From IMG/VR virus record IMGVR_UViG_3300045988_098553: DNA of 35,337 bases; one strand, given 5' to 3'. Under the pieces are notes generated by a model that did no database searches, was not told the origin of the DNA, and saw only the letters and a program-made list of their open reading frames with translations. The translations under genes were made by a program, and so were the position numbers. How positions within the stretch are numbered: the first letter of the stretch is position 1; each line of letters opens with the position of its first letter. The stretch is from a virus. Positions 115-35,337 of this stretch are shown piece by piece.

Positions 115-2948
115 TGGCGAGCAAGAATACGGTTGAAATCAAATTCAAGGCCGAGACCGAGCAGTTCCGCGCCGCCATCAAGTCGGCCAACTCGACCATG
201 ACCACGCTTCGCGGCGAGCTCAAGCTCAATGCCGCCCAAATGAAGAACACCGGCGCGTCGGTCGAGGCGCTTACTCGCAAGAAGAAGCTGCTCGAGCAGC
301 AGGACGAGACCCTACAGCAGAAGATCAACGCGCTCGCCTCGCAGCTTGAGGCATCAAACGCCGCCTTCGGCGAGAACTCCGCATCGTCACAGAAGCTCAC
401 CAATCAGCTCAACCAGGCAAAGGCCGCACAGCAGAACGTCCGCGCAGCCATTAGTCAGACGAGCACCGAGATTGAGAAGCAGGCCGACGCCGAGCAGCAG
501 GCTGAGAGCGCCTACACGCAGCTGTCCAACAAGATCAATGAGCAGCGCACAAAGCTCAAGCAGTTGCAGACGGCATACGCCGATGCCGTGATCGCCAAGG
601 GCAAGGACTCGACCGAGGCCAAGGAGCTTGAGTCCAACATCCGCGAGCTCAATTCCGAGCTTCGTCAAAACGAGTCCAAGATGCGCGCCGCCGAGGACGC
701 AGCCGAGTCGCTCGCGCGCGAGGAGGACAACCTCGCGGATTCAGCCGATCGTGCAAACGACGGCTTCACCGTCGCCAAGGGCGTGCTGTCAAATCTCGCG
801 AGCGAGGCATTCTCACGCGTCGCCCAGGGCGCAAAGGATACCGCCAAGGAGGTCGTTGACCTCGGCAAGACCTTCGAGCTGTCGCTATCCAACGTCCAGG
901 CACTCTCCGGCGCGAGCGCCGATGACATGGAGCGCCTTGAGGCGAAGTCGCGCGAACTCGGCGGCACGACCACCTTTTCAGCGGCTCAGGTAGCCGATGC
1001 ATTCGGCTACATGGCCCTTGCGGGCTGGGATACCGAGCAATCGCTCGACGCAATCAACGGCGTGCTCACGCTCGCACAGGCCGGCTCGATGGACCTTGCA
1101 TCAGCGTCCGATTTGCTCACCGACTACCTGTCGGCATTTTCGATGCAGGCGAGCGATGCCGCCACGATGACGGACGTTTTGGCTTACGCGCAGGGTAACG
1201 CCAACACCAACGTCGAGCAGCTTGGCGCCGCATTTAAGAATTGTGCCGCCAACTGCAACGCCGCCGGCATGGACGTCCAGACCACGACGGCTTTTATCTC
1301 CGAGCTGTCAAATCAGGGACTTAAGGGCTCCGAGGCCGGCACCGCGCTCAACGCCGTCATGCGTGATATGACGGCGAAGATGTCCGATGGCGCCATCAAG
1401 ATCGGCGAGACGAGCGTCGCCGTGATGGACGCCAATGGCAACTATCGCGACATGGTCGACATCATGCGTGATGTCGAGAGCGCAACAAATGGCATGGGTG
1501 ATGCTGAAAAGGCGAGCGCCCTGCAATCGACCTTTACCGCCGACTCCATCAAGGGCCTCAACCTCATCCTCAACGCAGGCACCGATGAGCTCGGCAGCTT
1601 CCGTGACGAGCTTTACAACTCGAATGGCGCTGCGCAGGACATGGCCGCAACCATGACTGATAACCTTGCCGGCGACCTGAGCAACCTCGACTCAGCGCTC
1701 GAGGAGGTCGGCCTCAAGCTCTATGACAAGTTCAAGGAGCCTCTGCGCGAGTCGGTCCAGTTCGTCAGCAATGACGTGGTTCCGGCAATCGGCACGCTCA
1801 TCGAAAACTTCGACAAGATCGCGCCTGCCGTGGCTGGCGGTGCCGCCGGTATCGCCGCATTTGCCATCGGCGCGAACATCGTGCCGATTCTGACTGCCGT
1901 TTCCGGTGGCGTGACTGCACTTGGCGGTGCGGTCAGTTTCTTGCTCTCGCCAATCGGACTTGTCGCAATCGCGATTGCCGCGGCGACAGCGGCGCTCGTC
2001 TACCTTTGGAATACCAACGACAGCTTTAGAAATACCGTGATGGGAATCTGGCAGCAGATTTGCGACACGATTTCCCAAGCTGTTGCCCAAATCCAGCCGG
2101 TGCTCGATGCGCTGTCGGTATTTTTCACGACTGGATTGCTGCCGGCGCTTCAGTCTCTTGTTGATGGATACATCACCGGATTCGGCTTTATCGTCTCAGG
2201 AGCCTTGGCTTTCGCGTCCGGTTTGCTCCAAGTCATAACCGGCGGGATGACTGTTATCCAAGGTGTAATTGATACAGTTCTTGGCGTAATTGTCGGTATT
2301 TTTACCGGCGATTTTACGATGGCGCAAAATGGAGTGCAGACGATTCTAAATGGTCTGTCCTCTATCGCGTCGGGAATTTTAAATGGCCTTGCCGGTGCGA
2401 TCAGCGGAATTCTTGGCTCGGTCGTTTCTGTCTTTTCAGGCCAGTTTAACGCGATCACCTCAATCGTGGGCGGTGCCCTACAGGGGGTCGTTACTTTCTT
2501 TTCCGACAAGCTCGGTGCCGCGAAATCTACCGTGTCAGGCGCATTAAATGCGATTTCGGGATTTTTCAGCAATTGCAGGTTGCAGCTGCCGCACATCAAC
2601 CTACCGCACTTCTCGATCAGCGGTGATTTCTCAATCGTACCGCCAAGGACGCCGAAAATCAGCGTCGAGTGGTACGCCAAGGGCGGCATCCTGACCAGGC
2701 CAACGCTATTCGGATTCAACGGCAACCGTGCCATGGTCGGTGGCGAGGCGGGCCCCGAGGCCGTTCTGCCACTCTCCATCCTGCGCGGATTCATCGAGGA
2801 CACCTTTGAGCGTCACGCAACCGCAGCTTCGACCAACAATCTACAGATTACCGTCTACGCCCAGGGCGACGCCGATGAGATCGCGGATGCGGTCGCATAC
2901 AAGGTTTTCGGTGCCATCGACCAGGCGATGACAGCGAATGGGAGGTAG
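114..2948 (+). CDS. Tail tape measure protein (944 aa)
   Basis: Longest ORF, directly after the G/GT chaperone pair. Coiled-coil N-terminal third, TP901-like core (QVADAFGYMALAGW...), Gly/Ala-rich hydrophobic repeats in the C-terminal half. GAGGAGG lies upstream of the GTG. Confidence 0.9.
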   Translation: MASKNTVEIKFKAETEQFRAAIKSANSTMTTLRGELKLNAAQMKNTGASVEALTRKKKLLEQQDETLQQKINALASQLEASNAAFGENSASSQKLTNQLNQAKAAQQNVRAAISQTSTEIEKQADAEQQAESAYTQLSNKINEQRTKLKQLQTAYADAVIAKGKDSTEAKELESNIRELNSELRQNESKMRAAEDAAESLAREEDNLADSADRANDGFTVAKGVLSNLASEAFSRVAQGAKDTAKEVVDLGKTFELSLSNVQALSGASADDMERLEAKSRELGGTTTFSAAQVADAFGYMALAGWDTEQSLDAINGVLTLAQAGSMDLASASDLLTDYLSAFSMQASDAATMTDVLAYAQGNANTNVEQLGAAFKNCAANCNAAGMDVQTTTAFISELSNQGLKGSEAGTALNAVMRDMTAKMSDGAIKIGETSVAVMDANGNYRDMVDIMRDVESATNGMGDAEKASALQSTFTADSIKGLNLILNAGTDELGSFRDELYNSNGAAQDMAATMTDNLAGDLSNLDSALEEVGLKLYDKFKEPLRESVQFVSNDVVPAIGTLIENFDKIAPAVAGGAAGIAAFAIGANIVPILTAVSGGVTALGGAVSFLLSPIGLVAIAIAAATAALVYLWNTNDSFRNTVMGIWQQICDTISQAVAQIQPVLDALSVFFTTGLLPALQSLVDGYITGFGFIVSGALAFASGLLQVITGGMTVIQGVIDTVLGVIVGIFTGDFTMAQNGVQTILNGLSSIASGILNGLAGAISGILGSVVSVFSGQFNAITSIVGGALQGVVTFFSDKLGAAKSTVSGALNAISGFFSNCRLQLPHINLPHFSISGDFSIVPPRTPKISVEWYAKGGILTRPTLFGFNGNRAMVGGEAGPEAVLPLSILRGFIEDTFERHATAASTNNLQITVYAQGDADEIADAVAYKVFGAIDQAMTANGR

Positions 2949-2951
2949 CGC

Positions 2952-5108
2952 ATGGCTTATCATGCCGGCAACTGGGCTGGCCCGGCGGCGCTTTTCCGCG
3001 TGGTCGTCGCCTACAGCTTCGAGAACTACCGCGATGACGTTGTCAATCTCAAGGCTCGTTACTATGTCGAGGTCTCTGCCAACTCGTCATTCAACGGCAC
3101 CATCCTTAAGACGAGTTGGGGTCAGACCGTCAGGCTTTACGGTCAGGGCATATATGCCGATACCGGGTGGTGCGACTGGGGTGATGTTGGATACGGCCAC
3201 ACGGCTCGCGCGAGCATTTCTGCGGACTACACCTCATATTCAGGCGCTTATCACAAGTCATCGGTCGATGGTGTCGAGACGGTCAGCGCACCTGAATGGC
3301 AACCGTACAACATCACAAGCCTCAAGGTCGAGCGCCAATCGGACAACTCCGCGAAGCTGTCGTGGGGAAACAACGCCCATGCCGCCCGTCCGTACCGACA
3401 CATCTACATCGACCAGCGCATCGACGGCGGTGCATGGTCGAATGTAGCCGACCTCACCAACTCGCCGACGTCATGGACCGCATCGACCGCACCGGATCAC
3501 TCGTATGAGTGGCGAGTCATACCCAACAATTACAGCGGCTCGGCCCATGACTACCAGTACGCCGGGCCAATCTACAACACGCCTGCGCCTCCGAGATTCG
3601 TCTCGGTCGCGCGCAAGAGCAACACGATCGTCACAGCCGTGCTTGAAAACAGCTCGAACACGGCCACCTCGCTCGAGTATCAGACGTGCAAGCAGGGGAG
3701 CACGGGATGGGGGGAATGGGGCGAGTCGACCTATGTCGACGGCCTCGTAAAGACCTTCGATGTCGACCTCGGCGGCGGCACCTTCAAGCTGCGCGCTCGA
3801 AACAAGCGCCTGCACCTCGACAGTGAGTGGGCCGAGTCCGATTCGGTCGTTACGATCTGCCCGCCGATGGCGCCGACACTCGTGTTGCCGACGTCATCTG
3901 GCGTCATCGCGTCCAACGAACCTACGGTCGCATACCAGTGGCGACACAACCCGTATGACGGCTCCGATCAGCAAAAGGCAGAGCTCGCCATCAGTATCGA
4001 CGGCGGCAGCAGCTGGACGGTCGATACCGTCACCGGCAATCAGAGCACAATCGTCAAGACAAACGACTATGGCGTCAACCAGCAGGTCGTTTGGCGCGTC
4101 CGCACCAAGGGTGCAGATGACAATTTCGGTCCCTGGTCAGCTAACCGCACCTTTAGCGTGCGACAGCGCCCGACCGTGGTCATCGAGCAGCCCGCGGACG
4201 GCTTTGTCATCACCGACGTGCCGGTCTCGCTAAAGCTGACGTATATCGACCAATCCGGTACCGTGCAGGCATCGACGCTCACGATCATGCGCGGCGACGA
4301 GGCGGTCTTTACAAAATCGCTCGGCAAGTCCCTCGCGACCACCATCACTGCCGACGAGTGGGTACCGGTCGACGGCGAGACCTACGTCATCAGCGTCATG
4401 TCACGATCGACCTCGTCGCTCACGGCGACCACAAAGCGCACCGTCACGACCAAGTTCCGACTGCCTCAGCGCGGGAACATCTTCGTCGAGACTGATCCGG
4501 CCACCGGATGCGCGACCGTGCAGGTCAGGCTCTCGCGCGACAGCGAGCTCGCCACTGCCGTGTGCCTCGACCTCTACCGTGTGACTGAGACCGGTCGCAT
4601 CAAGATCGGCTCGGACATGAGCGACGGTGCTGAGGTTATCGACCGCTTCGCGCCGCTCAACGTCGAGTACACCTACGAGGCTGTCACGACCTCCGGCACC
4701 GGCGCCGTCAACACCTCGACCGCCACCGGCGTCATCGAGACGCCGTGGTGGTTCATCATCTACGATGGCGGCATTGCCCAGGCTATGTGGGAGCCATCCG
4801 GCTCGCGCACGCCGACACGACCGTCTGATGAGATCGTCGAGCTCGATGGCAGGACGTGGCCTCTGCTCATCCAATCGCGTCAACGCTCGCTCAAGATTGA
4901 TTTCTCAGGATGGGTTGAGTCGCGAGAGCAGGCGCGCGCATTTGAAAGCATGACATTCGCCTCCGGCGACAAGATCTATAAGGGACTGTCCGGTGACGTT
5001 TTCCATTGCTCTGCCTCGGCGAAAATCGATGAGGAATATGACGGCTTCGAGGACTACAGCGCTTCGGTCTCGGTATCCATCACGAGGGTCGACGGCGGTG
5101 AGGTCTGA
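2952..5108 (+). CDS. Distal tail protein (Dit)-like, enlarged (718 aa); N-terminal FN3/Ig-like repeats and a Sipho_tail-like C-terminal region
   Basis: Position immediately after the tape measure gene. Three beta-sandwich-looking segments. C-terminal WWFIIYDGG...LKIDFSGWV resembles siphovirus tail-component family proteins. Confidence 0.6.
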   Translation: MAYHAGNWAGPAALFRVVVAYSFENYRDDVVNLKARYYVEVSANSSFNGTILKTSWGQTVRLYGQGIYADTGWCDWGDVGYGHTARASISADYTSYSGAYHKSSVDGVETVSAPEWQPYNITSLKVERQSDNSAKLSWGNNAHAARPYRHIYIDQRIDGGAWSNVADLTNSPTSWTASTAPDHSYEWRVIPNNYSGSAHDYQYAGPIYNTPAPPRFVSVARKSNTIVTAVLENSSNTATSLEYQTCKQGSTGWGEWGESTYVDGLVKTFDVDLGGGTFKLRARNKRLHLDSEWAESDSVVTICPPMAPTLVLPTSSGVIASNEPTVAYQWRHNPYDGSDQQKAELAISIDGGSSWTVDTVTGNQSTIVKTNDYGVNQQVVWRVRTKGADDNFGPWSANRTFSVRQRPTVVIEQPADGFVITDVPVSLKLTYIDQSGTVQASTLTIMRGDEAVFTKSLGKSLATTITADEWVPVDGETYVISVMSRSTSSLTATTKRTVTTKFRLPQRGNIFVETDPATGCATVQVRLSRDSELATAVCLDLYRVTETGRIKIGSDMSDGAEVIDRFAPLNVEYTYEAVTTSGTGAVNTSTATGVIETPWWFIIYDGGIAQAMWEPSGSRTPTRPSDEIVELDGRTWPLLIQSRQRSLKIDFSGWVESREQARAFESMTFASGDKIYKGLSGDVFHCSASAKIDEEYDGFEDYSASVSVSITRVDGGEV

Positions 5109-6501: not shown

Positions 6502-7326
6502 ATGGCTCAAGAGCTTACATTTGATACCAAAAAGCCCGAGAACGCCTTTAAGGAGCAGCGACTCGACCCGCTGCGCCGCGGCGAGCGCGGAAACCGTGAA
6601 CTCACGGTAAGCATCGCCTCCAAGGGCGTTCCCTACGATCTCACCGGATGCACGGTGCGATTTATCGGCACCACCGGTGGCGGTCAGCTCGTTGGACCGT
6701 CTGAAATCGAGGTCACAAACGCAACAGTCGGCATGGTGCGCCACCTGCTGCCGGCAGAGATGTCGACCGATGCCGGTCTCGCGCGTTGGTACTACGAGAT
6801 CTACAGGGGAGAGGATTACCTCGACACGACCGAGACATGCTCGGTCAAGGTCTTGCAAAGTGCCGATATCGGCGGTCAGCAGGCGACGGTCTATATCTCG
6901 ATTTTGGAACAGGCGAAAATCGATGAGCAAGCGCGTGCCGATGCCGAGTCAAAACGCGCTGATGCTGAGATTCAGCGCGAGGCCAACGAGCAGGAGCGCG
7001 AGACCTCATTTGTCGAGATGTCCAACAAGCTCGCCGCTGCCGCCGCTACCGCAAAGGCGGCTCGCGATGATGCGACCGCCTCTGCCAAAGCCGCCGAGAA
7101 ATCGGAACAATCTGCTGCTGCTAGCGCTTTGAGTGCCGGCAAATCGGCAGATAGCGCAGCCGCCGTAATCAAGGATACCGAGGCGGCTGCTGCCGATGCG
7201 CGCCTTGCGGCAGACGAGGCGCGAGGCTCCATCTCAGCCGACAAGAGCATGTATTTCAAGCGCATCACTGATGAAAATGGCGACACGTGGCCTGTCATCG
7301 TAGATACGACCGTCAAGGGGGACTAA
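6502..7326 (+). CDS. BppU-like baseplate upper / tail fibre protein (274 aa)
   Basis: N-terminus (ELTFDTKKP...RELTVSIASKGVPYDLTGCTVRF) resembles the BppU_N/DUF2479 domain. Ala-rich coiled-coil centre is typical of fibre shafts. Confidence 0.6.
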   Translation: MAQELTFDTKKPENAFKEQRLDPLRRGERGNRELTVSIASKGVPYDLTGCTVRFIGTTGGGQLVGPSEIEVTNATVGMVRHLLPAEMSTDAGLARWYYEIYRGEDYLDTTETCSVKVLQSADIGGQQATVYISILEQAKIDEQARADAESKRADAEIQREANEQERETSFVEMSNKLAAAAATAKAARDDATASAKAAEKSEQSAAASALSAGKSADSAAAVIKDTEAAAADARLAADEARGSISADKSMYFKRITDENGDTWPVIVDTTVKGD

Positions 7327-8919
7327 ATGGATCATATCTTTCCGGCAAACGACACGATGGAGAATGGCTTTGCTGCCGTTGCCGATGCAATCCTGAGCCT
7401 GAATGTCGCACCTGCGCCTTACCCCGAATGGGATGCCGCCAAGGGCGAATTCACCGTCAAGTCAATCCTGCGATGGCTGAGCTCCGAGAGTGACGGCAAG
7501 ATCTACGCCGTCGACCAGACGCTCGATGCCGTCCAGACGCTCACAAAGAGCCTCGCCAACGCAGACATCGCCAATCCGGTGCCGTCCACGCTGCTCAAGC
7601 CCGGTACCGACCCTTACATGGGTGTTGGTCCGTTCCGTTACGAGCACGTCAACGGCTACAAGGACGATGCAGGCGCCTGGCATATTACCGGCATGCGTTC
7701 CTTCGGCAATTTCAGCTATACGGACGGTCGAGACGTTTTCGCCCTCGCGCCCGTGCGTTATGTGTTTCATGGCATTGTCGATGGCAAATATCGCGTTGCA
7801 TGCTCCGATCGTCCTCACGTGGGCTACGTGCCCGAGGATCGTTCGCTGAGACTCGACGGCACTCTTGAACCGTTCATGTGCCGCGCCGCGTTTGGCGCAT
7901 CCAAGGATTCCTCCGGCAAGCCCTGCTCGGTCGCCGGCGCCAAGCTTTGGACCCGTAGCTGCTCTCATAACTCGATGAATGAGGCTGCTAAGAAGAAGGG
8001 CACCGAGTACAGCGGCTACACCGCAGCCGACTATGACTATATTTACGAGATGAACCTGCTCAAGTATGCTCACAAGTCGAGCCAGGCCAATTTCGCGGGC
8101 TGCTCGAACCATACCGAGCAGACGCCCGTGACGGTTGCTGGTTCCGGCGCTCCTACCGTCACCATCGCCAAGACCGTCGCCGACAAGTGGCCCATCGGAT
8201 CTGCCGTCATGGTCGGCACCACAACGGTCGCCGGTCGAGACCGAGGCAATGCCGACGCTTTCGACATCGCAGATCAGGCCAATATCGTCAAGAAAACGGT
8301 CAATGGCGACAATGTCGTTCTGACGCTCGATTGTGGCAACATCACGACCAAGGTCGGTCAGCTCGTCTCAACGGCTCCGTGGAATCCCGGCGCGACCGTC
8401 GGCATCGTCGGTGACGGCTCGCCTTATGACAACAAGTCCGGTCGCGAGCCCTTTGCCATCCAAGGTATCGAGGTCATGCTCGGCGCCTGGGAGATTCTCG
8501 GCGATCAGCTCGTCAAGGGCGAGGATGACGGCTACGGCTACTATCTCGTCGAGGACACGTCCAAGTCTGCTACCTCCGTGACCTCCGACTACACCAAGAT
8601 TTTTACGCTGCCGATCAAGGCTGCGGATGGCGAGATGTATCCGTCCGCAATGGTCAAGGGCAAGGGCTCTCTGGTGCCATATGGCACCGGCGGCTCAACC
8701 GGCGCAGGTGTCGGTGACGGCATTTGGTATTACGGTGGGAAAAAGACCGATACGTATGAAGTCCGTGTGTTCGGCATCCTCGGGAATGGCTCTGGCGCTG
8801 GCTTGCGCCGCGCGGGCCTCTACTACTGGCCGGGCGGGGCGTGGTGGTACAACGCTTCGCGCGTCTCGCCGAATGGTCGAAACAGGGTGAATGCCGACGT
8901 GCCGCCGCAGGCGGCGTAA
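7327..8919 (+). CDS. Receptor-binding / tail fibre protein; DGR target protein with C-terminal variable region (530 aa)
   Basis: Last large tail gene. Its C-terminal codons (VRVFGILGNGSGAGLRRAGLYYWPGGAWWYNASRVS) are the VR copy of the downstream TR. Confidence 0.85.
   Translation: MDHIFPANDTMENGFAAVADAILSLNVAPAPYPEWDAAKGEFTVKSILRWLSSESDGKIYAVDQTLDAVQTLTKSLANADIANPVPSTLLKPGTDPYMGVGPFRYEHVNGYKDDAGAWHITGMRSFGNFSYTDGRDVFALAPVRYVFHGIVDGKYRVACSDRPHVGYVPEDRSLRLDGTLEPFMCRAAFGASKDSSGKPCSVAGAKLWTRSCSHNSMNEAAKKKGTEYSGYTAADYDYIYEMNLLKYAHKSSQANFAGCSNHTEQTPVTVAGSGAPTVTIAKTVADKWPIGSAVMVGTTTVAGRDRGNADAFDIADQANIVKKTVNGDNVVLTLDCGNITTKVGQLVSTAPWNPGATVGIVGDGSPYDNKSGREPFAIQGIEVMLGAWEILGDQLVKGEDDGYGYYLVEDTSKSATSVTSDYTKIFTLPIKAADGEMYPSAMVKGKGSLVPYGTGGSTGAGVGDGIWYYGGKKTDTYEVRVFGILGNGSGAGLRRAGLYYWPGGAWWYNASRVSPNGRNRVNADVPPQAA
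8761..8867 (+). repeat. DGR variable repeat (VR), 107 bp, in frame within the target gene
   Basis: Aligns without gaps to 8990..9096 (offset 229). There are 15 mismatches, every one opposite an A in the TR copy. Confidence 0.9.
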
Positions 8920-8941
8920 GTCGGCAGAGGGGCGGCGCCCC
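8893..8941 (+). other. Two adjacent GC-rich stem-loops just 3' of VR (candidate DGR homing-associated hairpins)
   Basis: First: gccgac/gtcggc (8893..8898 / 8920..8925) enclosing ccgcc/ggcgg (8903..8907 / 8912..8916), spanning the stop codon. Second: ggggc-ggc-gcccc (8929..8941). No U-tract follows either. Confidence 0.45.
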
Positions 8942-8989
8942 TGAAAAACGGCCCAGGGACCTGCCGTGCATGCAGGTGGAATTCCTTTC

Positions 8990-9096
8990 GTCCATGTGTT
9001 CGGCAACCTCAGGAATGGCTCTAACGCTGGCTTGCGCCGCGCGAACCTCAACAACTGGCCGGACAGGGCGAGGTGGAACAACGCTTCGCGCGAATC
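8990..9096 (+). repeat. DGR template repeat (TR), 107 bp
   Basis: Non-coding copy of VR. Contains 23 adenines, 22 of them at codon positions 1 or 2 in the VR frame (7 AAC and 1 AAT codons). 15 of the 23 are substituted in VR. Confidence 0.9.
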
Positions 9097-9250
9097 TGAT
9101 TGATAGCTCCCATAAAACCCGCACGGCAGAGTACCCGGTGGAAGCATCGGGCGCGCCTGGCTTAACAAAGTGAAATGGCATATAAGACCACCGGGTCAGT
9201 AGGCATTTTGCCGACCGCTCGGAATGCAATCAGAGAGCTGAATTGGTCGA
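9097..9250 (+). ncRNA. Putative DGR spacer (Sp) RNA region between TR and RT
   Basis: Non-coding 154 nt between TR and the RT start. A 9-bp long-range stem acccggtgg (9133..9141) / ccaccgggt (9188..9196) encloses a GC palindrome (ggcgcgcc). Confidence 0.45.
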
Positions 9251-10321
9251 ATGAAAAGTTACTGCAAGGGCCTTGCCGTCGATACCGATCTTGTCGGCAG
9301 GGCCTATGAGAATTGGCGGTCTGGCGAATCAGGCCGGACCAATGAATGGCGTGTGTACAAGGAATACGGCTCGCCCAATGCCCTTATCGCCGAGATCGTA
9401 GCCGAGGCCAATGCCGGCACACTGCGATTCGAGCCCTTGAGCACGAGACCGAGGCAAGATGGCGGCAAGCTGCGCAACATTGGCGTCGAAGGTGTCAAGC
9501 AGCAGATCTGCGGCTACACCGTCGACCTCGCCGTCGATTCGCTCATGCGCGCGAAAACTGGATACTGGCAGGTCAACAGACCTGGTATGGGACAGTTCCG
9601 CGCGGCACCGACGGTGCAGAAATGGGTCAATCAGTGCGCCTATCACGTGCATCTCGACGTCAAATCCTGCTATGAGTCCGTGAGGTGCGCTGACGTCATG
9701 CGCGTACTCGAGAAGTACGTGCGCTCGAGCGTTGTGCTCGGTATCGCCAAGGCGATTATGGACTCGTACCCAGACGGTCACCTGATGATCGGTAGCTACT
9801 TCTCACTCAGGATGGCGCTGCTCATCCTGAGCTTTGGCTACCACCATGTCGAGAACATGCATAAGACTCGCCGCGGCAAGCGCGTGGCGCTTGTCGAGCA
9901 CCAGGCATGGTACGTCGATGACATCTGGCTTTTCGGCAGCGACAAACGAAACCTCAAGTGCGCAGCGCGTGACCTTGCGAAGTACCTCAAGGCCGAGTTT
10001 GGGTTAAAGCTCAAGCCCTGGAAGGTGTGCAGGGCAACCGACGATGATCCGACGGACATTGCCGGCCCCGTGGTCAGACGTAAGCGGATCACAATCCGCG
10101 ACAAGACCTTTCGCAAGGGCAGACGCGCGTTATTCCGATGCCGCCGAAAACCAACGAATCTGAGGCTGGCAAGACGCCTGATCGCCTATTGCGGCTGGTT
10201 CAAACACACCGACAGCCAGAGATTCTGCTACAACAACGGACTCTATCCGGCACGCCGCCAAGCCAAAAAGGTAATCGCGAGATACGACAGATTAAGGAGT
10301 GCTCATGCAGTTCGAGCTTGA
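9251..10321 (+). CDS. DGR reverse transcriptase (356 aa)
   Basis: RT motifs by eye: KLRNIGVEGVKQQICGY (motifs 1-2), IGSYFSL (motif 4 region), AWYVDDIWLFG (YxDD, motif 5). Sits directly 3' of TR. The C-terminal ~90 aa is very basic. Confidence 0.85.
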   Translation: MKSYCKGLAVDTDLVGRAYENWRSGESGRTNEWRVYKEYGSPNALIAEIVAEANAGTLRFEPLSTRPRQDGGKLRNIGVEGVKQQICGYTVDLAVDSLMRAKTGYWQVNRPGMGQFRAAPTVQKWVNQCAYHVHLDVKSCYESVRCADVMRVLEKYVRSSVVLGIAKAIMDSYPDGHLMIGSYFSLRMALLILSFGYHHVENMHKTRRGKRVALVEHQAWYVDDIWLFGSDKRNLKCAARDLAKYLKAEFGLKLKPWKVCRATDDDPTDIAGPVVRRKRITIRDKTFRKGRRALFRCRRKPTNLRLARRLIAYCGWFKHTDSQRFCYNNGLYPARRQAKKVIARYDRLRSAHAVRA

Positions 10322-10679
10322 GTTTTGCGACCGCGAGCCCGCAAAGGTCACGGTCATCCAGGACGGCCCCATCGCCAATATCTGGCTCCGCAAGGACATT
10401 GCCGAGGATACCGTCGATAACGGTCCCGACGGCACGCCTTACAAGATTTGGCGCTGCAACACATTGTTTTTCCAGCGCATCGGCACGCCGACCGCCGAGG
10501 AAATCGAGGCTGACTTTGACGCAATCGCCGAGCAGCAGATTGTCGGCAATCGCACGGTCGATGAGCGCATTGGTGCGACCGAGCAGGCTGTCGCCGACAA
10601 CGGCAAGCAGCTCGAGACGGCGTTTCAGGCGCTTGCCGAACTCGGCGACATGATCGCAACGGCGGGAGGTGAAGTCTAA
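10305..10679 (+). CDS. Hypothetical tail-fibre-adjacent protein (124 aa, acidic)
   Basis: AAGGAG RBS 5 nt before ATG 10305. Overlaps the RT 3' end. Position equivalent to XkdW-like genes. Confidence 0.55.
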   Translation: MQFELEFCDREPAKVTVIQDGPIANIWLRKDIAEDTVDNGPDGTPYKIWRCNTLFFQRIGTPTAEEIEADFDAIAEQQIVGNRTVDERIGATEQAVADNGKQLETAFQALAELGDMIATAGGEV

Positions 10680-10804
10680 TGGCAGCAATCTACGCAACGC
10701 TTATCAAGGATGGCGCTATCAACCCCAAGACCGGTGAGCCCTGGAAGATTGAGGACGTGAACGTCCTTTGGCGTGCCTCCGTCAAAAAGATTCTCGGTAA
10801 GTAG
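10679..10804 (+). CDS. Small conserved phage protein (41 aa), CD1375/XkdX-like by position and sequence
   Basis: TAATG coupling with the upstream gene. MAAIYATLIKDGAINPKTGEPWKIEDVNVLWRASVKKILGK resembles small proteins found after tail fibre genes of Gram-positive phages. Confidence 0.45.
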   Translation: MAAIYATLIKDGAINPKTGEPWKIEDVNVLWRASVKKILGK

Positions 10805-12741: not shown

Positions 12742-14274
12742 CTAGGCTGCGAGCAGCACGCCAAAGCCGCCTTTAAGCGGCAGTATCCCAACGCTGTGAT
12801 ACACTTGGAAAAGTTCGGGATAATTCACGCCCGGGCTACCACAGCTGATTTTCCCGAACTCTCCATTGGAGGGTTCGGGTTTTTTGTTTTCGCTGCTGGG
12901 ACGGCACAAAATGAACTGCACCAGCAGGCTCCCGTCCTCGTTGACCGTCACTCGGTCGACGAAAGCGGCGACCATCCCGCGGGGACCGTCCGATTGGCGC
13001 ATCTTGTAGAGCGCGAACAAGATCATGTCTCGGTCGATGAGCGGCGCTCCGCGCTTAATCTCATCGAGCTCAGCCTTGAGTGCCGTGAGCTCGTCTTGCA
13101 ACCCGTTGATTTTGACCGCCATTCGGTCCGTAGAGCCGAGTTTGCACGCTAGGTCGATAGCGTTATCTATCTCGCGCTCAACGTCCGTTATTCGGCGGCT
13201 CAGGGCTTCACGCGCGGAAATCTCCTGCTCGGCATCTTTGTCCTGACGCGCAAGTACCATGTCGACTATACGCTCGTCCAGATCGGGATTCTCATTGAGC
13301 AGGCGTGCGCATGCTCCGATCACCTTGTCCTCCACCTCGTCTCGACGCATCGACACCTTGGTTTTGCGGCAGCGGTAGTAGTGGTACTGCCTGCCGTTTT
13401 CGCCATAGCCGCAATCGCTCTCAAATTGATTGCCGTCAGCGTCGTAAATCTTGCCTGACAACAGATACTCAGCATTCATCTTGCCTCGCCTTTTCCGACC
13501 TCTGGATGCCATGTGCGCATGCGCACTGTCCCAGAGCTCGCGGTCGATAATGGACGGCATGCCGTTTTCTTTCCTGAAATCGCCCCAGGTATAGGTGCCA
13601 ATGTAGCGCTCGCAATTGAGCAGCCTGCTCACTGCTTCATTGCTAAAATGCCTGCCGGTGACGGTCTTATATCCAAGGCCGTTGAGTCTGCGCATGATCT
13701 CTGCTTTTGTCTCGCCTGCGGCGCACATGTCAAAGGCCATGCGCACGCCTTCCGCCTCGTGTTCATTGATGGCATAGTATCCATCGGCGCCACGGTCATA
13801 CCCAAAGATTGAGACGCCGTTGTGCTTACACTTGAGGGCGTTACCTTCCATCCCGCGCTTGACGTTTTGCGCGAGATTGGCGCTGTAGTATTCGGCCATT
13901 CCCTCAAGCACAGATTCGAGGATGATGCCGTCCGGACCATCGGGTACCGACTCGGCGGCAGTCACGATCTCCACGCCGCACTTGCGCAATTTCGCCTTGT
14001 AGACGGCTGAATCGTAGCGCGAGCGTGCGAAGCGGTCGGTCTTGTAGACGATCACCTTTGTCCAGCGCTGTGCCTGGGCATCGAGAATCATCTTTTGAAA
14101 GCCGGGACGCCCGGCTGCATTGGTGCCAGATCGCGCCTCGTCCGTGTACGTCTTTACGATTTCAAAGCCCTTGGATGCCGCGAATTGGGAGCAGACGCGC
14201 ACTTGGTCCTCAATCGATTCCTCGCGCTGCTTGTCTGAGCTAAATCTCGCGTAAATTACCGCTTTTTCTGCCAT
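12742..14274 (-). CDS. Large serine recombinase (phage integrase), 510 aa
   Basis: N-terminal resolvase catalytic motif (VIYARFSSDKQ, catalytic Ser). Recombinase domain, Cys-containing zinc-ribbon region (YYRCRK) and a C-terminal coiled coil. Adjacent to the repressor. Confidence 0.9.
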   Translation of the reverse strand: MAEKAVIYARFSSDKQREESIEDQVRVCSQFAASKGFEIVKTYTDEARSGTNAAGRPGFQKMILDAQAQRWTKVIVYKTDRFARSRYDSAVYKAKLRKCGVEIVTAAESVPDGPDGIILESVLEGMAEYYSANLAQNVKRGMEGNALKCKHNGVSIFGYDRGADGYYAINEHEAEGVRMAFDMCAAGETKAEIMRRLNGLGYKTVTGRHFSNEAVSRLLNCERYIGTYTWGDFRKENGMPSIIDRELWDSAHAHMASRGRKRRGKMNAEYLLSGKIYDADGNQFESDCGYGENGRQYHYYRCRKTKVSMRRDEVEDKVIGACARLLNENPDLDERIVDMVLARQDKDAEQEISAREALSRRITDVEREIDNAIDLACKLGSTDRMAVKINGLQDELTALKAELDEIKRGAPLIDRDMILFALYKMRQSDGPRGMVAAFVDRVTVNEDGSLLVQFILCRPSSENKKPEPSNGEFGKISCGSPGVNYPELFQVYHSVGILPLKGGFGVLLAA

Positions 14275-20560: not shown

Positions 20561-21736
20561 ATGGCGGCAACGGTCCCAGTCAAGCAGGATTCGCGCGGAG
20601 TCTGGTACAGCAGGATATATCTTGGCAAGGACTCCAAAGGCAAGAAGATTCAGGCTTACCGCTCTTTTCCAGAGGCCACCAGTGAGGCAGATGCTCGAGT
20701 CGCAGCCGCAATCTGGGCATCTGACCTCACGGCAGACGGTCGCGTGCGCTCCACGGCGCTCACCGACATGCTCGCGGACTACATCGAGATGCGCGAGCTC
20801 AACGGCGCGAGTCCCAACTCGGTGAAGCAGTGGCGCCAATTCCTGCGCTGCTACATTACCCGATTTCTGCGCGGCAAGCGCGCGGACGAGGTCACGGCGT
20901 TTGAATTCACGCAATTCAACGGCGTGCTGCTGCGCCGCGGCTCGCGCGACGGTAAGCCCTTGAGCCCCAACACGGTCAACGCGGTCTATCAGTTTCTTCG
21001 TGGTGCCTACAGGTATTTCGTGAGCGTTGGCCTTGTGGAGACCAACCCGCTGCTCGACGCCGTCAAGCCCTACCGCGACCAAGACGAGGCGATCGCGCTT
21101 GAGGAAGATGACGTTACCATCCTCAACGCCTACCTTGACCCAATCGTGAGCTTCAAGGTCGAGGTGGGCAGCATAGAGCGCCGCAACGCCTTTGCAGCGT
21201 GGCTTGCCCTGCACACCGGCGCCCGATGCGGCGAGGTGTGCGCCGTGCGACCCAAAGACGTCTACCAGAAGCGCGGATACATCCATATTGGCGGCACGGT
21301 GGTCGAGCCTGGCAACGAGCAGCCATACCGCAAGGAGAAGCCCAAGAGCTCAACCTCCAGGCGCAACATATCACTCGTCCCAGAGGAGCTTGAGGTCATC
21401 GCGAGATTTATGGCATGGCACGAGACCCAGAAGGGGAGTGCTCGAGACATGGGCATCGCGAGCGTTGACGGCACGTGGGCGAGACCATCGACCTTGAGCA
21501 GCTGGTTCAAACGGCTGGTCGAGAAGCTCGACCTAGACCGTCAGGCGACCTTCCACACGCTTCGCCATACGCACGCAAGCTGGTGCCTGGCTCACGGCAT
21601 CGACGTTGTCACACTGAGCGAGCGCCTGGGGCACTCGTCACCTGCAATCACGATCCGAATCTACGGCCACATGCTGCAAGGCCGCGATATGGCGGCGGCA
21701 GAGACGTTCTACAAGGCAATCCAAGGAGGTGTTTAG
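20561..21736 (+). CDS. Tyrosine recombinase / phage integrase family protein (391 aa)
   Basis: C-terminal catalytic signature FHTLRHTHASWCL...LGHSSPAITIRIYGHM (R..HxxR..Y). The N-terminus (GVWYSRIYLGKDSKGKKIQAYRSF) looks like an arm-type DNA-binding domain. Confidence 0.88.
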   Translation: MAATVPVKQDSRGVWYSRIYLGKDSKGKKIQAYRSFPEATSEADARVAAAIWASDLTADGRVRSTALTDMLADYIEMRELNGASPNSVKQWRQFLRCYITRFLRGKRADEVTAFEFTQFNGVLLRRGSRDGKPLSPNTVNAVYQFLRGAYRYFVSVGLVETNPLLDAVKPYRDQDEAIALEEDDVTILNAYLDPIVSFKVEVGSIERRNAFAAWLALHTGARCGEVCAVRPKDVYQKRGYIHIGGTVVEPGNEQPYRKEKPKSSTSRRNISLVPEELEVIARFMAWHETQKGSARDMGIASVDGTWARPSTLSSWFKRLVEKLDLDRQATFHTLRHTHASWCLAHGIDVVTLSERLGHSSPAITIRIYGHMLQGRDMAAAETFYKAIQGGV

Positions 21737-24039: not shown

Positions 24040-24258
24040 ATGTCAATGGACATCAACGCGCCCCTTTTCCGTCAGCTTGACCGCCTTGAGAATATCGACC
24101 CGTCCGATACCGATGCGCTCAAGGCCGAGATCGAGCGCGCCCGTGCCGTCAAGGACATTGCCGAGACCATCATCGACTCGGGACACCTGACCGCCGACGT
24201 CATCAAGCTCAAGCACCAACTTGGCGCCACTGCGACCATCCACAAGGGCCTGCTCTAA
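24040..24258 (+). CDS. Hypothetical helical protein (72 aa)
   Basis: ORF with a plausible RBS, tightly coupled to the next gene. Confidence 0.5.
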   Translation: MSMDINAPLFRQLDRLENIDPSDTDALKAEIERARAVKDIAETIIDSGHLTADVIKLKHQLGATATIHKGLL

Positions 24259-25262
24259 TGGGAGGTCGAGTCTGGACGGACGAAGAGATCGAGTGGATTC
24301 GCGAGAACTATGCCAAAGAGCACGTCCCGCATCTGCTCGACCAGTTCGAGAAGCGCTTCGGGCGCCGTCCGACTGCCGGCGCCCTCGCGCAAAAGGCCTA
24401 TAAGCTCGGTCTCAGGCATTCGCGCGAGAAAGCTCCCGACACCATGACCAAGCGCATCATCTGGGCGCGCGAGCCCGCCTACAACGCCTGGATGGACGAG
24501 CATGATGTTGGTCAGGCCGTGCCAGCGCTGTCCGAGCAATTCGAGGCCGAGTTTGGCTTTGCCTTGTCGCGCGGACAGGTCAACGTGTGGCGCGCGAACA
24601 ACGGACGGCAGATGCGGCCCCGGCGTCCGGGCGGCGGCAGGCCGCGAAAGTCCATCGGCTTCGAGCGGCGCACCAAGGGCGGCATCTTGGTCAAAGTGCG
24701 TGAGGAGCCTACGGTCCCAATGTCGAAAGACAACTGGGAATTCAAGCACTACATCGTCTACCGAGAGGTGCACGGCTCGATTCCAGATGGATATGACATC
24801 GTCTGTGCGGACAAGAACCCGTTCAACTGTGCGCCTGAAAACCTCGTCGCCGTACCACATCGCCTGATGGCTCGCATCAATTCTGCCGACACACCGGACT
24901 GGCACGATGCCGAATCTCTCAGGCAATGCGTGGCGCTTTGCGAGCTCGCGTCAGGCATCCATAAGGCCGAGCTGTCGGTGCCAAGGACGTGCGGCGTCTG
25001 CGGCAAGACATTCCTGCCAGATCCGAGCAAAGGTGCCGACTACCAGAACCGCTACCGAAAGACGTGTCCCGAGTGCCGCGCGCGGGGACTCAAGGCGCAT
25101 GGAGAGCGCACCACAAAGCTGATCGCCACCTGCTGCGTCTGCGGCAAGCAGTTTCCCGCTCGCGCTAAAAACCAAAAGCGCTGTCCCGAGTGCATCGCCA
25201 TTCATCCGAAATGGGGAGCCAAGAGACACGCCCACCTCGAAGAAAGAAAACGTAAGGACTAG
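24258..25262 (+). CDS. DNA-binding protein with degenerate HNH_3-like core and C-terminal CxxC zinc ribbons (334 aa)
   Basis: HYIVYREVHGSIPDGYDIVCADKNPFNCAPENLVAV resembles HNH_3, but Cys replaces the usual His. CGVCGKTF...CPECR and CCVCGKQF...CPECI pairs. N-terminal Myb/SANT-like WTDEEIEWIRENY. Confidence 0.4.
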   Translation: MGGRVWTDEEIEWIRENYAKEHVPHLLDQFEKRFGRRPTAGALAQKAYKLGLRHSREKAPDTMTKRIIWAREPAYNAWMDEHDVGQAVPALSEQFEAEFGFALSRGQVNVWRANNGRQMRPRRPGGGRPRKSIGFERRTKGGILVKVREEPTVPMSKDNWEFKHYIVYREVHGSIPDGYDIVCADKNPFNCAPENLVAVPHRLMARINSADTPDWHDAESLRQCVALCELASGIHKAELSVPRTCGVCGKTFLPDPSKGADYQNRYRKTCPECRARGLKAHGERTTKLIATCCVCGKQFPARAKNQKRCPECIAIHPKWGAKRHAHLEERKRKD

Positions 25263-35131: not shown

Positions 35132-35337
35132 GCGCCAAGGAGAAATCAAAGCTGGTCGCGCGCCCTCCGAAATTTGAAATAACCGACGTTGAAGATGCCT
35201 ATGCCTTTTACGTCCTCGTCCTCGGCATGTCCGAGGACATTTTTTTTAACGCCGACATCCCATTCCTATTGAGCGTCATGGCGAACAAAAACGCCTATGA
35301 CCTCTGGCAATCGTCTGTCGAGAACAAACTCCGAGAG
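35083..35337 (+). CDS. gpT-like -1 frame extension of the chaperone (G-T fusion about 199 aa); runs off the window end and finishes at 100..114
   Basis: The -1 frame is free of stops from the heptamer to the window end and on to TAG 112..114. There is no start codon near its beginning. Confidence 0.75.
35239..35337. repeat. Terminal direct repeat, copy 2 (identical to 1..99)
   Basis: Exact 99-nt identity with the window start. Confidence 0.9.

Follow-up and report, generated by a model that had tools for sequence, protein, structure and literature searches.

We describe here a diversity-generating retroelement (DGR) in a stretch of viral DNA of 35,337 nt (IMG/VR record IMGVR_UViG_3300045988_098553), which we refer to throughout as the window. 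We conclude, with a probability of roughly 0.92, that this DGR is functional or was so until very recently, that it has no accessory gene and is made up of a target gene that ends in a variable region (VR), a template region (TR) and a reverse transcriptase (RT), and that it is carried by a complete 35.2-kb temperate siphophage of Collinsella type. The element is a clear but ordinary case of a well-known system, and belongs to the known subtype that does without Avd. Three of its aspects are more than routine: the host group; the RT family, which standard annotation criteria fail to catch; and the RNA scaffold, which is backed by covariation and from which a testable model of Avd-independent priming can be derived.

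The element was originally predicted from the DNA letters alone, with the differences between VR and TR counted by hand. Re-alignment and a scripted count gave the same result: VR (8761-8867) and TR (8990-9096) match without gaps over 107 nt, and all 15 mismatches between them lie at TR adenines (8 A>G, 6 A>T and 1 A>C). The TR contains 23 A, 33 G, 33 C and 18 T, none of its 84 non-A positions differs from VR, and the restriction of the mismatches to adenines is significant by Fisher's exact test (p = 6.5e-13). When the TR adenines were masked to N, the resulting pattern was found at exactly 2 sites in the genome and at none in 100 shuffles, so that the genome holds one TR and one VR. The predicted codon design was reproduced in our recount, with 22 of the 23 TR adenines at codon position 1 or 2 of the open reading frame (ORF) at 7327-8919 and with seven AAC codons and one AAT codon in TR, and the peptide readings that had been given for the 2 repeats were correct on re-reading. 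No stop codon can be reached by adenine mutagenesis of the VR, which makes up residues 479-514 of the 530-aa target and could encode ~1.1e12 different peptides.

One part of the original count has to be revised. It is true that 15 of the 23 adenines differ between the repeats, but 2 of these differences, the last in the alignment (VR 8864-8865 TC vs TR 9093-9094 AA), are identical in 8 of 8 close strains, namely the window and 7 others whose DNA we obtained and from which TR and VR were extracted by regular expressions on their conserved ends. In all 8, the repeat tails read ...GCGCG-AATC for TR and ...GCGCG-TCTC for VR. Because the difference is the same in each strain, we regard it as a fixed boundary of the IMH/IMH* type (initiation of mutagenic homing) and not as a product of mutagenesis. 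The mutable set is then 21 adenines (TR 8994-9081), 13 of which have been changed in this genome. The boundary itself consists of CGCTTCGCGCG, which is the same in VR and TR, followed by TCTC in the one and AATC in the other, after which the 2 sequences diverge. By analogy with phage BPP-1 (PMC5758913), this IMH-like end of VR would set the direction of homing. Equivalents of the 2 GC-rich hairpins that follow the VR were found in the family loci that we inspected, with the counterpart of the 8892-8926 hairpin at the matching place in all of them; the counterpart of the 8928-8942 hairpin is joined to a T-run in some relatives and may be a terminator there. An exact search of IMG/VR for the 3' flank of the VR returned no match, and a consensus scan around the TR revealed neither a sigma-70-type promoter-like site nor a plus-strand terminator-like site.

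Comparison of the 8 strains with each other provides evidence that information has moved from TR to VR. TR adenines carry 96 of their 99 TR/VR mismatches (169 A sites vs 655 non-A sites), and 2 strains differ on average at 4.7 positions in TR vs 17.1 in VR. Moreover, wherever TR differs between strains and the base left is not an adenine, that base recurs in the VR of the same strain; in strain L067, for example, there are nine non-A changes in TR, and all of them have been copied into its VR. These mirrored changes indicate that TR-to-VR transfer took place after the strains in question had diverged. For a comparison at the protein level, we drew on a target cluster of 784 members (at least 90% identity) and aligned 16 targets, those of the window and of 15 cluster members from various metagenome and assembly sources. 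The 16 targets have 16 distinct VR peptides, although the phages are more than 94% identical elsewhere. At the 13 codons that contain adenine, pairwise identity falls to 24.6%, as against 95.2% for the remaining VR codons and 95.8% for the protein outside the VR; a single VR site shows up to eight different residues. In these cluster members, then, hypervariability is confined to the 13 A-codons of the VR; a restriction of polymorphism to TR-A positions is what the original prediction had suggested looking for in metagenomic or population reads. Our observations support the conclusion that diversification is confined to the VR and is ongoing or recent across metagenomes.

The same arrangement is widespread among the relatives of the element. 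An adenine-biased TR/VR pair in matching order was present in 48 of 65 genomic relatives, which together with the window gave us 49 loci for comparison. Their order is always target-VR, TR, spacer, RT; the gap between VR and TR has a median of 109 nt (range 85-226), and the spacer between TR and RT is ~160-180 nt in most. In the aggregate, TR adenines account for 669 of 699 TR/VR mismatches in these loci (669 of 1114 A sites vs 30 of 4171 non-A sites).

The RT gene lies where it had been placed, 154 nt after the TR, and it encodes the YVDD box that had been noted. Its product matches phrog_1423 ("reverse transcriptase") at 2e-29. Used as a single query against the PDB, this sequence barely found bRT, the RT of the BPP-1 DGR (E 0.021), whereas a family profile built from 33 family members found bRT with 68.1 bits (E 5.6e-18), ahead of group-II-type RTs, which scored no more than 38 bits, and of the retron RT Ec86 at E 0.25. 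The AlphaFold2 model of the RT (pLDDT 92.7) pointed the same way: its best PDB match by Foldseek was again bRT (8ub7_A; E 8.2e-16, TM 0.78/0.84, rmsd 3.3, 338 columns), G2L4 and group II RTs followed with TM ~0.69/0.61 (at most 0.70 when normalised to the query), and retron RTs reached at most 0.59, query-normalised. Both profile and predicted fold thus support an RT of DGR type whose nearest solved relative is bRT. Among the 33 aligned family members the active-site box is Y[VAM]DD, and the IG of motif 4 is kept in all of them. The Coriobacteriia members form a separate cluster, with the nearest sequences outside the 94% cluster at most 64% identical.

Some observations on the annotation of this RT family may be recorded here. 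Several members (P0001, P0004-P0006 and others) have no precomputed Pfam domain. The start codon is ATG in the window and apparently TTG (...AATTGAAG) in many relatives, including L002 and L004-L010. Gene callers sometimes run the RT ORF, or a spurious ORF, through the TR, as was seen for P0044 and for the window itself at 8841-9173 (+), and the resulting products have Asn-rich N-terminal extensions such as ...GNLRNRGNAGLWYVNGNNGTGN...; extensions of this kind could serve as a handy flag for unannotated TRs.

The target gene directly follows a BppU_N gene, which places it in the position of a receptor-binding protein (RBP) or tail fibre, and fusions with BppU_N or with collagen repeats occur among its homologues. 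The AlphaFold2 model of the target (pLDDT 91.6, pTM 0.90) was compared with the PDB, and the only matches at E <=1e-3 were three chains of TaqVP (5vf4; E 2.7e-6, probability 1.0, ~457 columns). TaqVP is the DGR variable protein of Thermus aquaticus and has a C-type-lectin fold; the match therefore supports, at the level of a predicted model, that the VR is carried on a fold of C-type-lectin type, which is the fold that the original prediction had recommended looking for. The resemblance has its bounds, in that identity is 11-13% and TM over the whole chain is 0.34/0.45, so the domain arrangements differ, and TaqVP is a cellular protein whereas the window target belongs to a phage tail fibre. 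In the BFVD collection, the target matched many gut-phage "tail collar fibre" proteins as well as proteins named FGE-like and TvpA-like. One of these matches is a tail-fibre protein of the crAss-like phage cr55_1, which also encodes an RT that matches the window RT. The length of the neighbouring BppU_N protein was observed to vary among near-identical strains: 274, 288 and 372 aa (window 6502-7326; L067 1882-3000; L069 2134-3000). The extra length in L067 matches itself at an offset of 21 nt (7 aa), is rich in Ala, Glu and Arg, and is probably coiled-coil.

We looked for the accessory protein Avd (PF05635) among 137 ORFs of 75-200 aa on both strands and obtained no match at E <=0.01; Pfam scans of the window ORFs for the Avd, HRDC and MutS families were negative as well. 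Also, the gap between VR and TR leaves no room for a gene in any of the relatives. On both grounds, we assign the element to the accessory-less Architecture A1 and not to Architecture B (avd-TR-RT). The assignment is one of layout: as in Architecture A1 and the avd-free Lineage 3 (PMC5758913), the TR-RT core is on one strand and the target is immediately upstream, Architecture A1 being defined by the absence of avd, HRDC, MSL and CH1 genes. Such elements are not rare. In the survey by Wu et al. 2018, avd was missing in 26% of DGRs, the accessory-less Architecture A amounted to 29%, and Lineage 3 was without avd, with Lineage 3A named as restricted to Bacteroides and relatives (PMC5758913). Since no Avd is encoded, we infer that the RT probably works with RNA alone.

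That RNA can be described in some detail. In an alignment of 19 loci, RNAalifold and a structure that we specified by hand concurred on three elements: a duplex, S, that brackets the TR; a duplex, P, that joins the first bases past the mutable TR to the near-invariant segment ...CAGA-GAG in the spacer and is pseudoknotted with S; and a spacer stem, H3. The 24 base pairs of these elements are formed in 94.6% of alignment cells, vs 36-47% when the 3' partner is slid. Compensatory changes were observed in 18 of the 24 pairs (in helix P of L047, for example, CUGG/CCAG has become AAGG/CCUU), and 0 of 500 shuffles attained any of the observed measures. These observations support the conclusion that the TR lies within a conserved RNA fold. 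Two extra spacer hairpins, at 9133-9152 and 9161-9174, were recognised by eye and left out of the pair counts, the alignment being shifted by one column in several rows, and an anecdotal match resembling helix P (UCUGACA/UGUCAGA-AAG) was seen in the distant relative L055. An Rfam scan of 8600-10400 at E <=1 returned no family. A distance of 16 nt separates the end of the 3' strand in helix P from the RT start, so the RNA fold may overlap the region in which translation of the RT is initiated. The coordinates of these and the other features are collected in Table 1.

Table 1. Features of the DGR and adjoining genes in the window
Feature	Position	Strand	Remarks
Baseplate upper protein, BppU_N	6502..7326	+	Pfam BppU_N 9.1e-13; PHROG minor tail protein; directly upstream of target
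DGR target, 530-aa tail fibre / RBP	7327..8919	+	phrog_17147 4.9e-66; phrog_5302 "tail protein"
VR	8761..8867	+	Ungapped TR match, all differences at TR adenines; mutagenised positions 8765-8852
IMH-like 3' end of VR	8853..8880	+	A-free GC-rich run CGCTTCGCGCG identical to TR, fixed TC/AA at 8864-8865, then homology lost
GC-rich composite hairpin	8892..8926	+	25 nt past VR; holds target stop TAA (8917-8919); inverted repeats I1 and I4; DNA fold
Second GC hairpin, AGGGGCG-G-CGCCCCT	8928..8942	+	3' of target gene; without T-run in this window
Helix S, 5' arm (TR-bracketing duplex)	8956..8968	+	Pairs with 9122-9135; compensatory changes in 7/7 main-helix pairs, 19 loci
TR	8990..9096	+	21 mutable adenines, 8994-9081; 9093-9094 are the IMH*-type fixed difference
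Helix P, template strand UCUGAUU	9095..9101	+	Candidate template:primer duplex; pairs with 9228-9234; compensatory change in 5/7 pairs
TR-to-RT spacer	9097..9250	+	Conserved structured non-coding RNA; blocks shared by Coriobacteriia and Bifidobacterium loci; covariation
Helix S, 3' arm	9122..9135	+	Pairs with 8956-8968; covariation
Spacer stem H3	9191..9222	+	9191-9196 with 9217-9222; 9203-9204 with 9210-9211
Helix P, primer strand AAUCAGA	9228..9234	+	Covariation; followed by near-invariant GAG; A9234 is candidate priming adenosine
DGR RT, 356 aa	9251..10321	+	YVDD active site; motif 4 IGSYFSL; starts 154 nt after TR
Acidic ORF, 124 aa, pI 4.1	10305..10679	+	Overlaps RT stop by 17 nt; adjoins DGR

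If the element follows the BPP-1 paradigm, an RNA spanning ~8950-9250 would be transcribed, and the RT would copy its TR portion into cDNA with misincorporation opposite adenines. The cDNA would then replace the VR; the GC-rich IMH-like end (from 8853) would give the direction, perhaps with a contribution from the hairpins downstream of it. The outcome could be up to ~1e12 variants of the tail-fibre tip with no possibility of a stop codon, by which the phage might follow, or switch between, surface receptors of its host. Within the RNA, duplex S would clamp both sides of the TR, the pseudoknotted duplex P would bring the ...CAGA-GAG segment to the TR 3' end, and stem H3 would be a third conserved element that organises the whole. 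A9234 is our candidate for a cis-priming nucleotide, by analogy with A56 of the BPP-1 spacer RNA (Sp), which provides the precedent for a priming adenosine in a study that dealt with Avd-containing DGRs only (bioRxiv 10.1101/2023.10.23.563531). As a tentative proposal, which we consider possible although the odds are against it, the avd-free DGR lineage of Coriobacteriia and Bifidobacterium would carry out cis-primed, adenine-mutagenic reverse transcription with RT and RNA alone: the pseudoknot would take over the positioning role of Avd, with S holding the TR flanks, P pairing the first post-TR bases with the segment that lies 16 nt before the start of the RT gene, and A9234 serving as the priming nucleotide.

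An alternative to this proposal is that a helper is needed after all, and that the acidic ORF which is translationally coupled to the RT is a non-homologous substitute for Avd. The ORF overlaps the RT stop by 17 nt, and it directly follows the RT in 11 of 12 aligned family loci, with Collinsella, Bifidobacterium, Blautia, Phascolarctobacterium and others among the sources, and in 8 of 8 loci returned for three further relatives; the relatives with this arrangement come from both Actinomycetota and Bacillota. The ORF is without annotation in Pfam, PHROG, NCBIfam and PADLOC, and a tblastn search with it and one relative against deposited phages gave no match. Yet its pI of 4.1 is far from that of Avd, which is basic (mean pI 9.5; PMC5758913), and longer members of its family carry a C-terminal carbohydrate-binding module, CBM_5_12. 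Where relatives consist of this C-terminal part only, they follow the target instead of the RT, and the DGR concerned has another gene order and a weak Avd match of its own; a relative with both parts (its N-terminal domain with moderate hhalign support, probability 52%, E 1.4e-4) lies between tail and lysis genes at a locus without RT or TR/VR. Also, the loci that we compared all share their tail and lysis gene order, so that synteny confounds the association with the RT. We consider a helper role unlikely, and the acidic ORF is probably a gene of the tail/lysis module rather than part of the DGR.

Three further explanations would do away with an active DGR altogether. It is quite improbable, in our judgement, that the cassette is a relic, ancestrally active but now inert in this genome with its VR frozen in one state. 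Such a view can draw on the fact that our evidence comes from across the population and not from reads within one sample, and on the sub-threshold Pfam score and missing SQ dipeptide of the RT that are discussed below; it is difficult to reconcile with an intact RT ORF that has the catalytic YVDD and all family-invariant residues, with a confident RT model that superposes on bRT, and with the integrity of TR, spacer helices and IMH-like end. The 16 different VRs in 16 otherwise closely similar phages, and the strain-specific non-A changes copied from TR to VR more recently than the strains diverged, speak against it as well. Still less credible is the suggestion that the RT belongs to another system (a retron, a group II intron, or a DRT/UG or Abi defence RT) that happens to lie beside an unrelated duplication. 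The RT does give weak sub-threshold matches to group II RT (26 bits), Drt3a, retron St85 and UG-type RTs, but the NCBIfam and PADLOC scores are far below cut-off (26 vs 300 bits for the group II model TIGR04416, 14 vs 235 bits for retron St85), bRT is the best match by both profile and fold, the Rfam scan detected no group II intron RNA, and 48 independent relatives repeat the adenine-only pattern of mismatches. As for TR and VR being a chance or recombinational duplicate with adenine differences by coincidence or compositional bias, this was a possibility only a priori, in a region that is GC-rich, and it is refuted by the window's Fisher test, by the counts from the 49 loci and by the empty result from the shuffles.

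The reading of the element as a functional or very recently functional DGR that works without accessory protein nevertheless has several points against it. The RT scores 24.1 bits against Pfam RVT_1, under the cut-off of 29.6 bits. In motif 4, the window RT and its aligned relatives have SL in place of the signature dipeptide SQ: the motif reads IGSYFSL, so that IGxxxS is present and the canonical Q is replaced by L (by M in a few of the 33). Canonical motif 4 is [I/V/L]GxxxSQ, with SQ in ~90% of DGR RTs and SP, SH, NQ, PA, AQ and VQ as variants (PMC3521204), a list from which SL is absent. Since such variants exist, and since the bRT substitution Q187P leaves adenine misincorporation unchanged (PMC7826257), we regard SL as a trait of the lineage and not as a disqualifier. 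Activity is evident across the population only and not for this particular genome, and tropism switching is proposed by analogy. With respect to Avd, a very divergent helper protein could still be present, and almost all of the close families that we sampled have the acidic ORF together with the RT. To our knowledge, Avd is essential in the sole DGR that has been studied biochemically, and Avd-independent synthesis in the present element is something that we infer. It should also be noted that the RNA structure was partly derived from the same sequences that were used for its statistics, and that helices S and P cannot be drawn nested; possibly, they could represent alternative conformers instead of a pseudoknot. 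In distant Firmicutes relatives, the z-scores for S and P from RNAduplex against mononucleotide shuffles did not discriminate.

Comparison with the BPP-1 DGR (mtd-avd-TR-brt) shows that the window element works like it but is not built like it. In both, adenine mutagenesis from TR to VR acts on the C-terminal domain of a phage receptor-binding protein, the TR is rich in AAY codons, the IMH-like end is GC-rich, and a GC hairpin follows the VR. The predicted RT fold superposes on bRT (TM 0.78/0.84), and the TR-flanking duplex and the duplex between TR 3' end and spacer may be compared with the "cPRT Stop" and template:primer duplexes of BPP-1. On the other hand, we found no avd gene in the window genome, the 2 RTs are only ~18% identical, motif 4 is IGSYFSL here vs IGSLTSQ in BPP-1, an A-rich linker directly follows the TR in place of the Avd-binding stem-loop of BPP-1, the host is an actinobacterial gut anaerobe, and the target does not detectably resemble Mtd in sequence. 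The analogy to BPP-1 Mtd that was drawn originally did not take the missing Avd, and with it the accessory-less build, into account. In their RTs, phages cr55_1, Faecalibacterium phage FP_Epona, Lactobacillus phage LBR48 and Butyrivibrio phages Arawn and Idris are 21-28% identical to the window RT, and the viral DGR clades of the human gut (PMC8144416) share its ecological setting; the window phage has no nucleotide similarity to deposited phages, and its RT family is a cluster of its own. Retrons and group II introns are set apart by the model scores given above, retrons also by the poor profile match of Ec86, and both by the empty Rfam scan of the cassette.

A DGR of different build was encountered in the course of these comparisons. 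In L081-L083 (~1090-5000), an unrelated gut-phage DGR has the order 194-aa ORF, TR, RT, ~600-aa target. The 194-aa ORF of L083 has a weak match to Avd (PF05635), the targets of L082 and L083 match DUF6273, and the TR/VR mismatches are at adenines in 21 of 21 cases in L081 and 16 of 16 in L083, with the VR internal to the target and not C-terminal.

The window represents an entire phage. Its first and last 99 nt (1-99 and 35239-35337) are identical, and from this terminal direct overlap we take the genome to be circularly closed and complete at 35,238 bp. It encodes a tape-measure protein, tail proteins, holin-like proteins, an endolysin, a serine recombinase, helix-turn-helix regulators, terminase, portal, ClpP and capsid. 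Relatives sit inside bacterial contigs of 50-160 kb, and their host genomes are those of Collinsella, Olsenella, Atopobiaceae and other Coriobacteriales; distant relatives (~30% RT identity) occur in Bifidobacterium, Blautia and Oscillospiraceae. Isolates with related prophages include Collinsella sp. CLA-ER-H5 (L008), Collinsella sp. i06-0019-1H4 (L009) and C. aerofaciens 1033st1_A2 (L018), and this phage or close strains of it occur, for example, in samples ERZ27289374, ERR1600703, ERZ4560405 and ERZ28660419. By gene content and by the company of its relatives, the phage is supported as a temperate siphophage of Collinsella-type Coriobacteriia. The actinobacterial host that had been guessed was thus right at the level of phylum, and the guess of a temperate siphophage agrees with the serine recombinase, the tape-measure protein and the bacterial contigs around the relatives. 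A nucleotide search with the cassette and a further 25 kb against 50,697 deposited phage genomes gave no match. We found no published description of a DGR for Collinsella or Coriobacteriia; a literature search on this point returned only unrelated microbiome papers.

Outside the cassette, a few other features of the genome were observed. There are 2 site-specific recombinases, a large serine recombinase by the lysis module (12742-14274, minus strand) and a tyrosine recombinase in the early region (20561-21736, plus strand; Phage_integrase match 8.4e-21). An HNH endonuclease gene (24258-25262) is located ~2 kb upstream of the genes for small and large terminase; an HNH gene near terminase genes is typical of HNH-dependent cos packaging. 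A 41-aa ORF (10679-10804) follows the acidic ORF, and where genes have been called in Coriobacteriia relatives, the 2 ORFs are again found as a pair; neither has an annotated family. A resemblance of the 41-aa ORF to XkdX was considered, but this ORF has no Pfam match at E <=1, and the idea was dropped.

The cassette confirms textbook DGR biology in a host group for which the collection of deposited phages that we searched contains no related phage. Its RT family is both under the RVT_1 threshold and without SQ, and would be missed by annotation pipelines that use either criterion. The abundance of the phage in human-gut metagenomes, with 784 target variants at 90% identity or more, makes it a natural data set on the rate of turnover of tail-fibre tips. 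If the priming model set out above is true, DGR priming independent of Avd would have its first concrete structural model, and the element would amount to a minimal two-component module for targeted mutagenesis, consisting of an RT and ~300 nt of RNA. This compact avd-free lineage, with an RNA scaffold that covariation supports, offers a testable handle on the mechanism of DGRs that lack Avd and might also yield a smaller chassis for engineered targeted mutagenesis.

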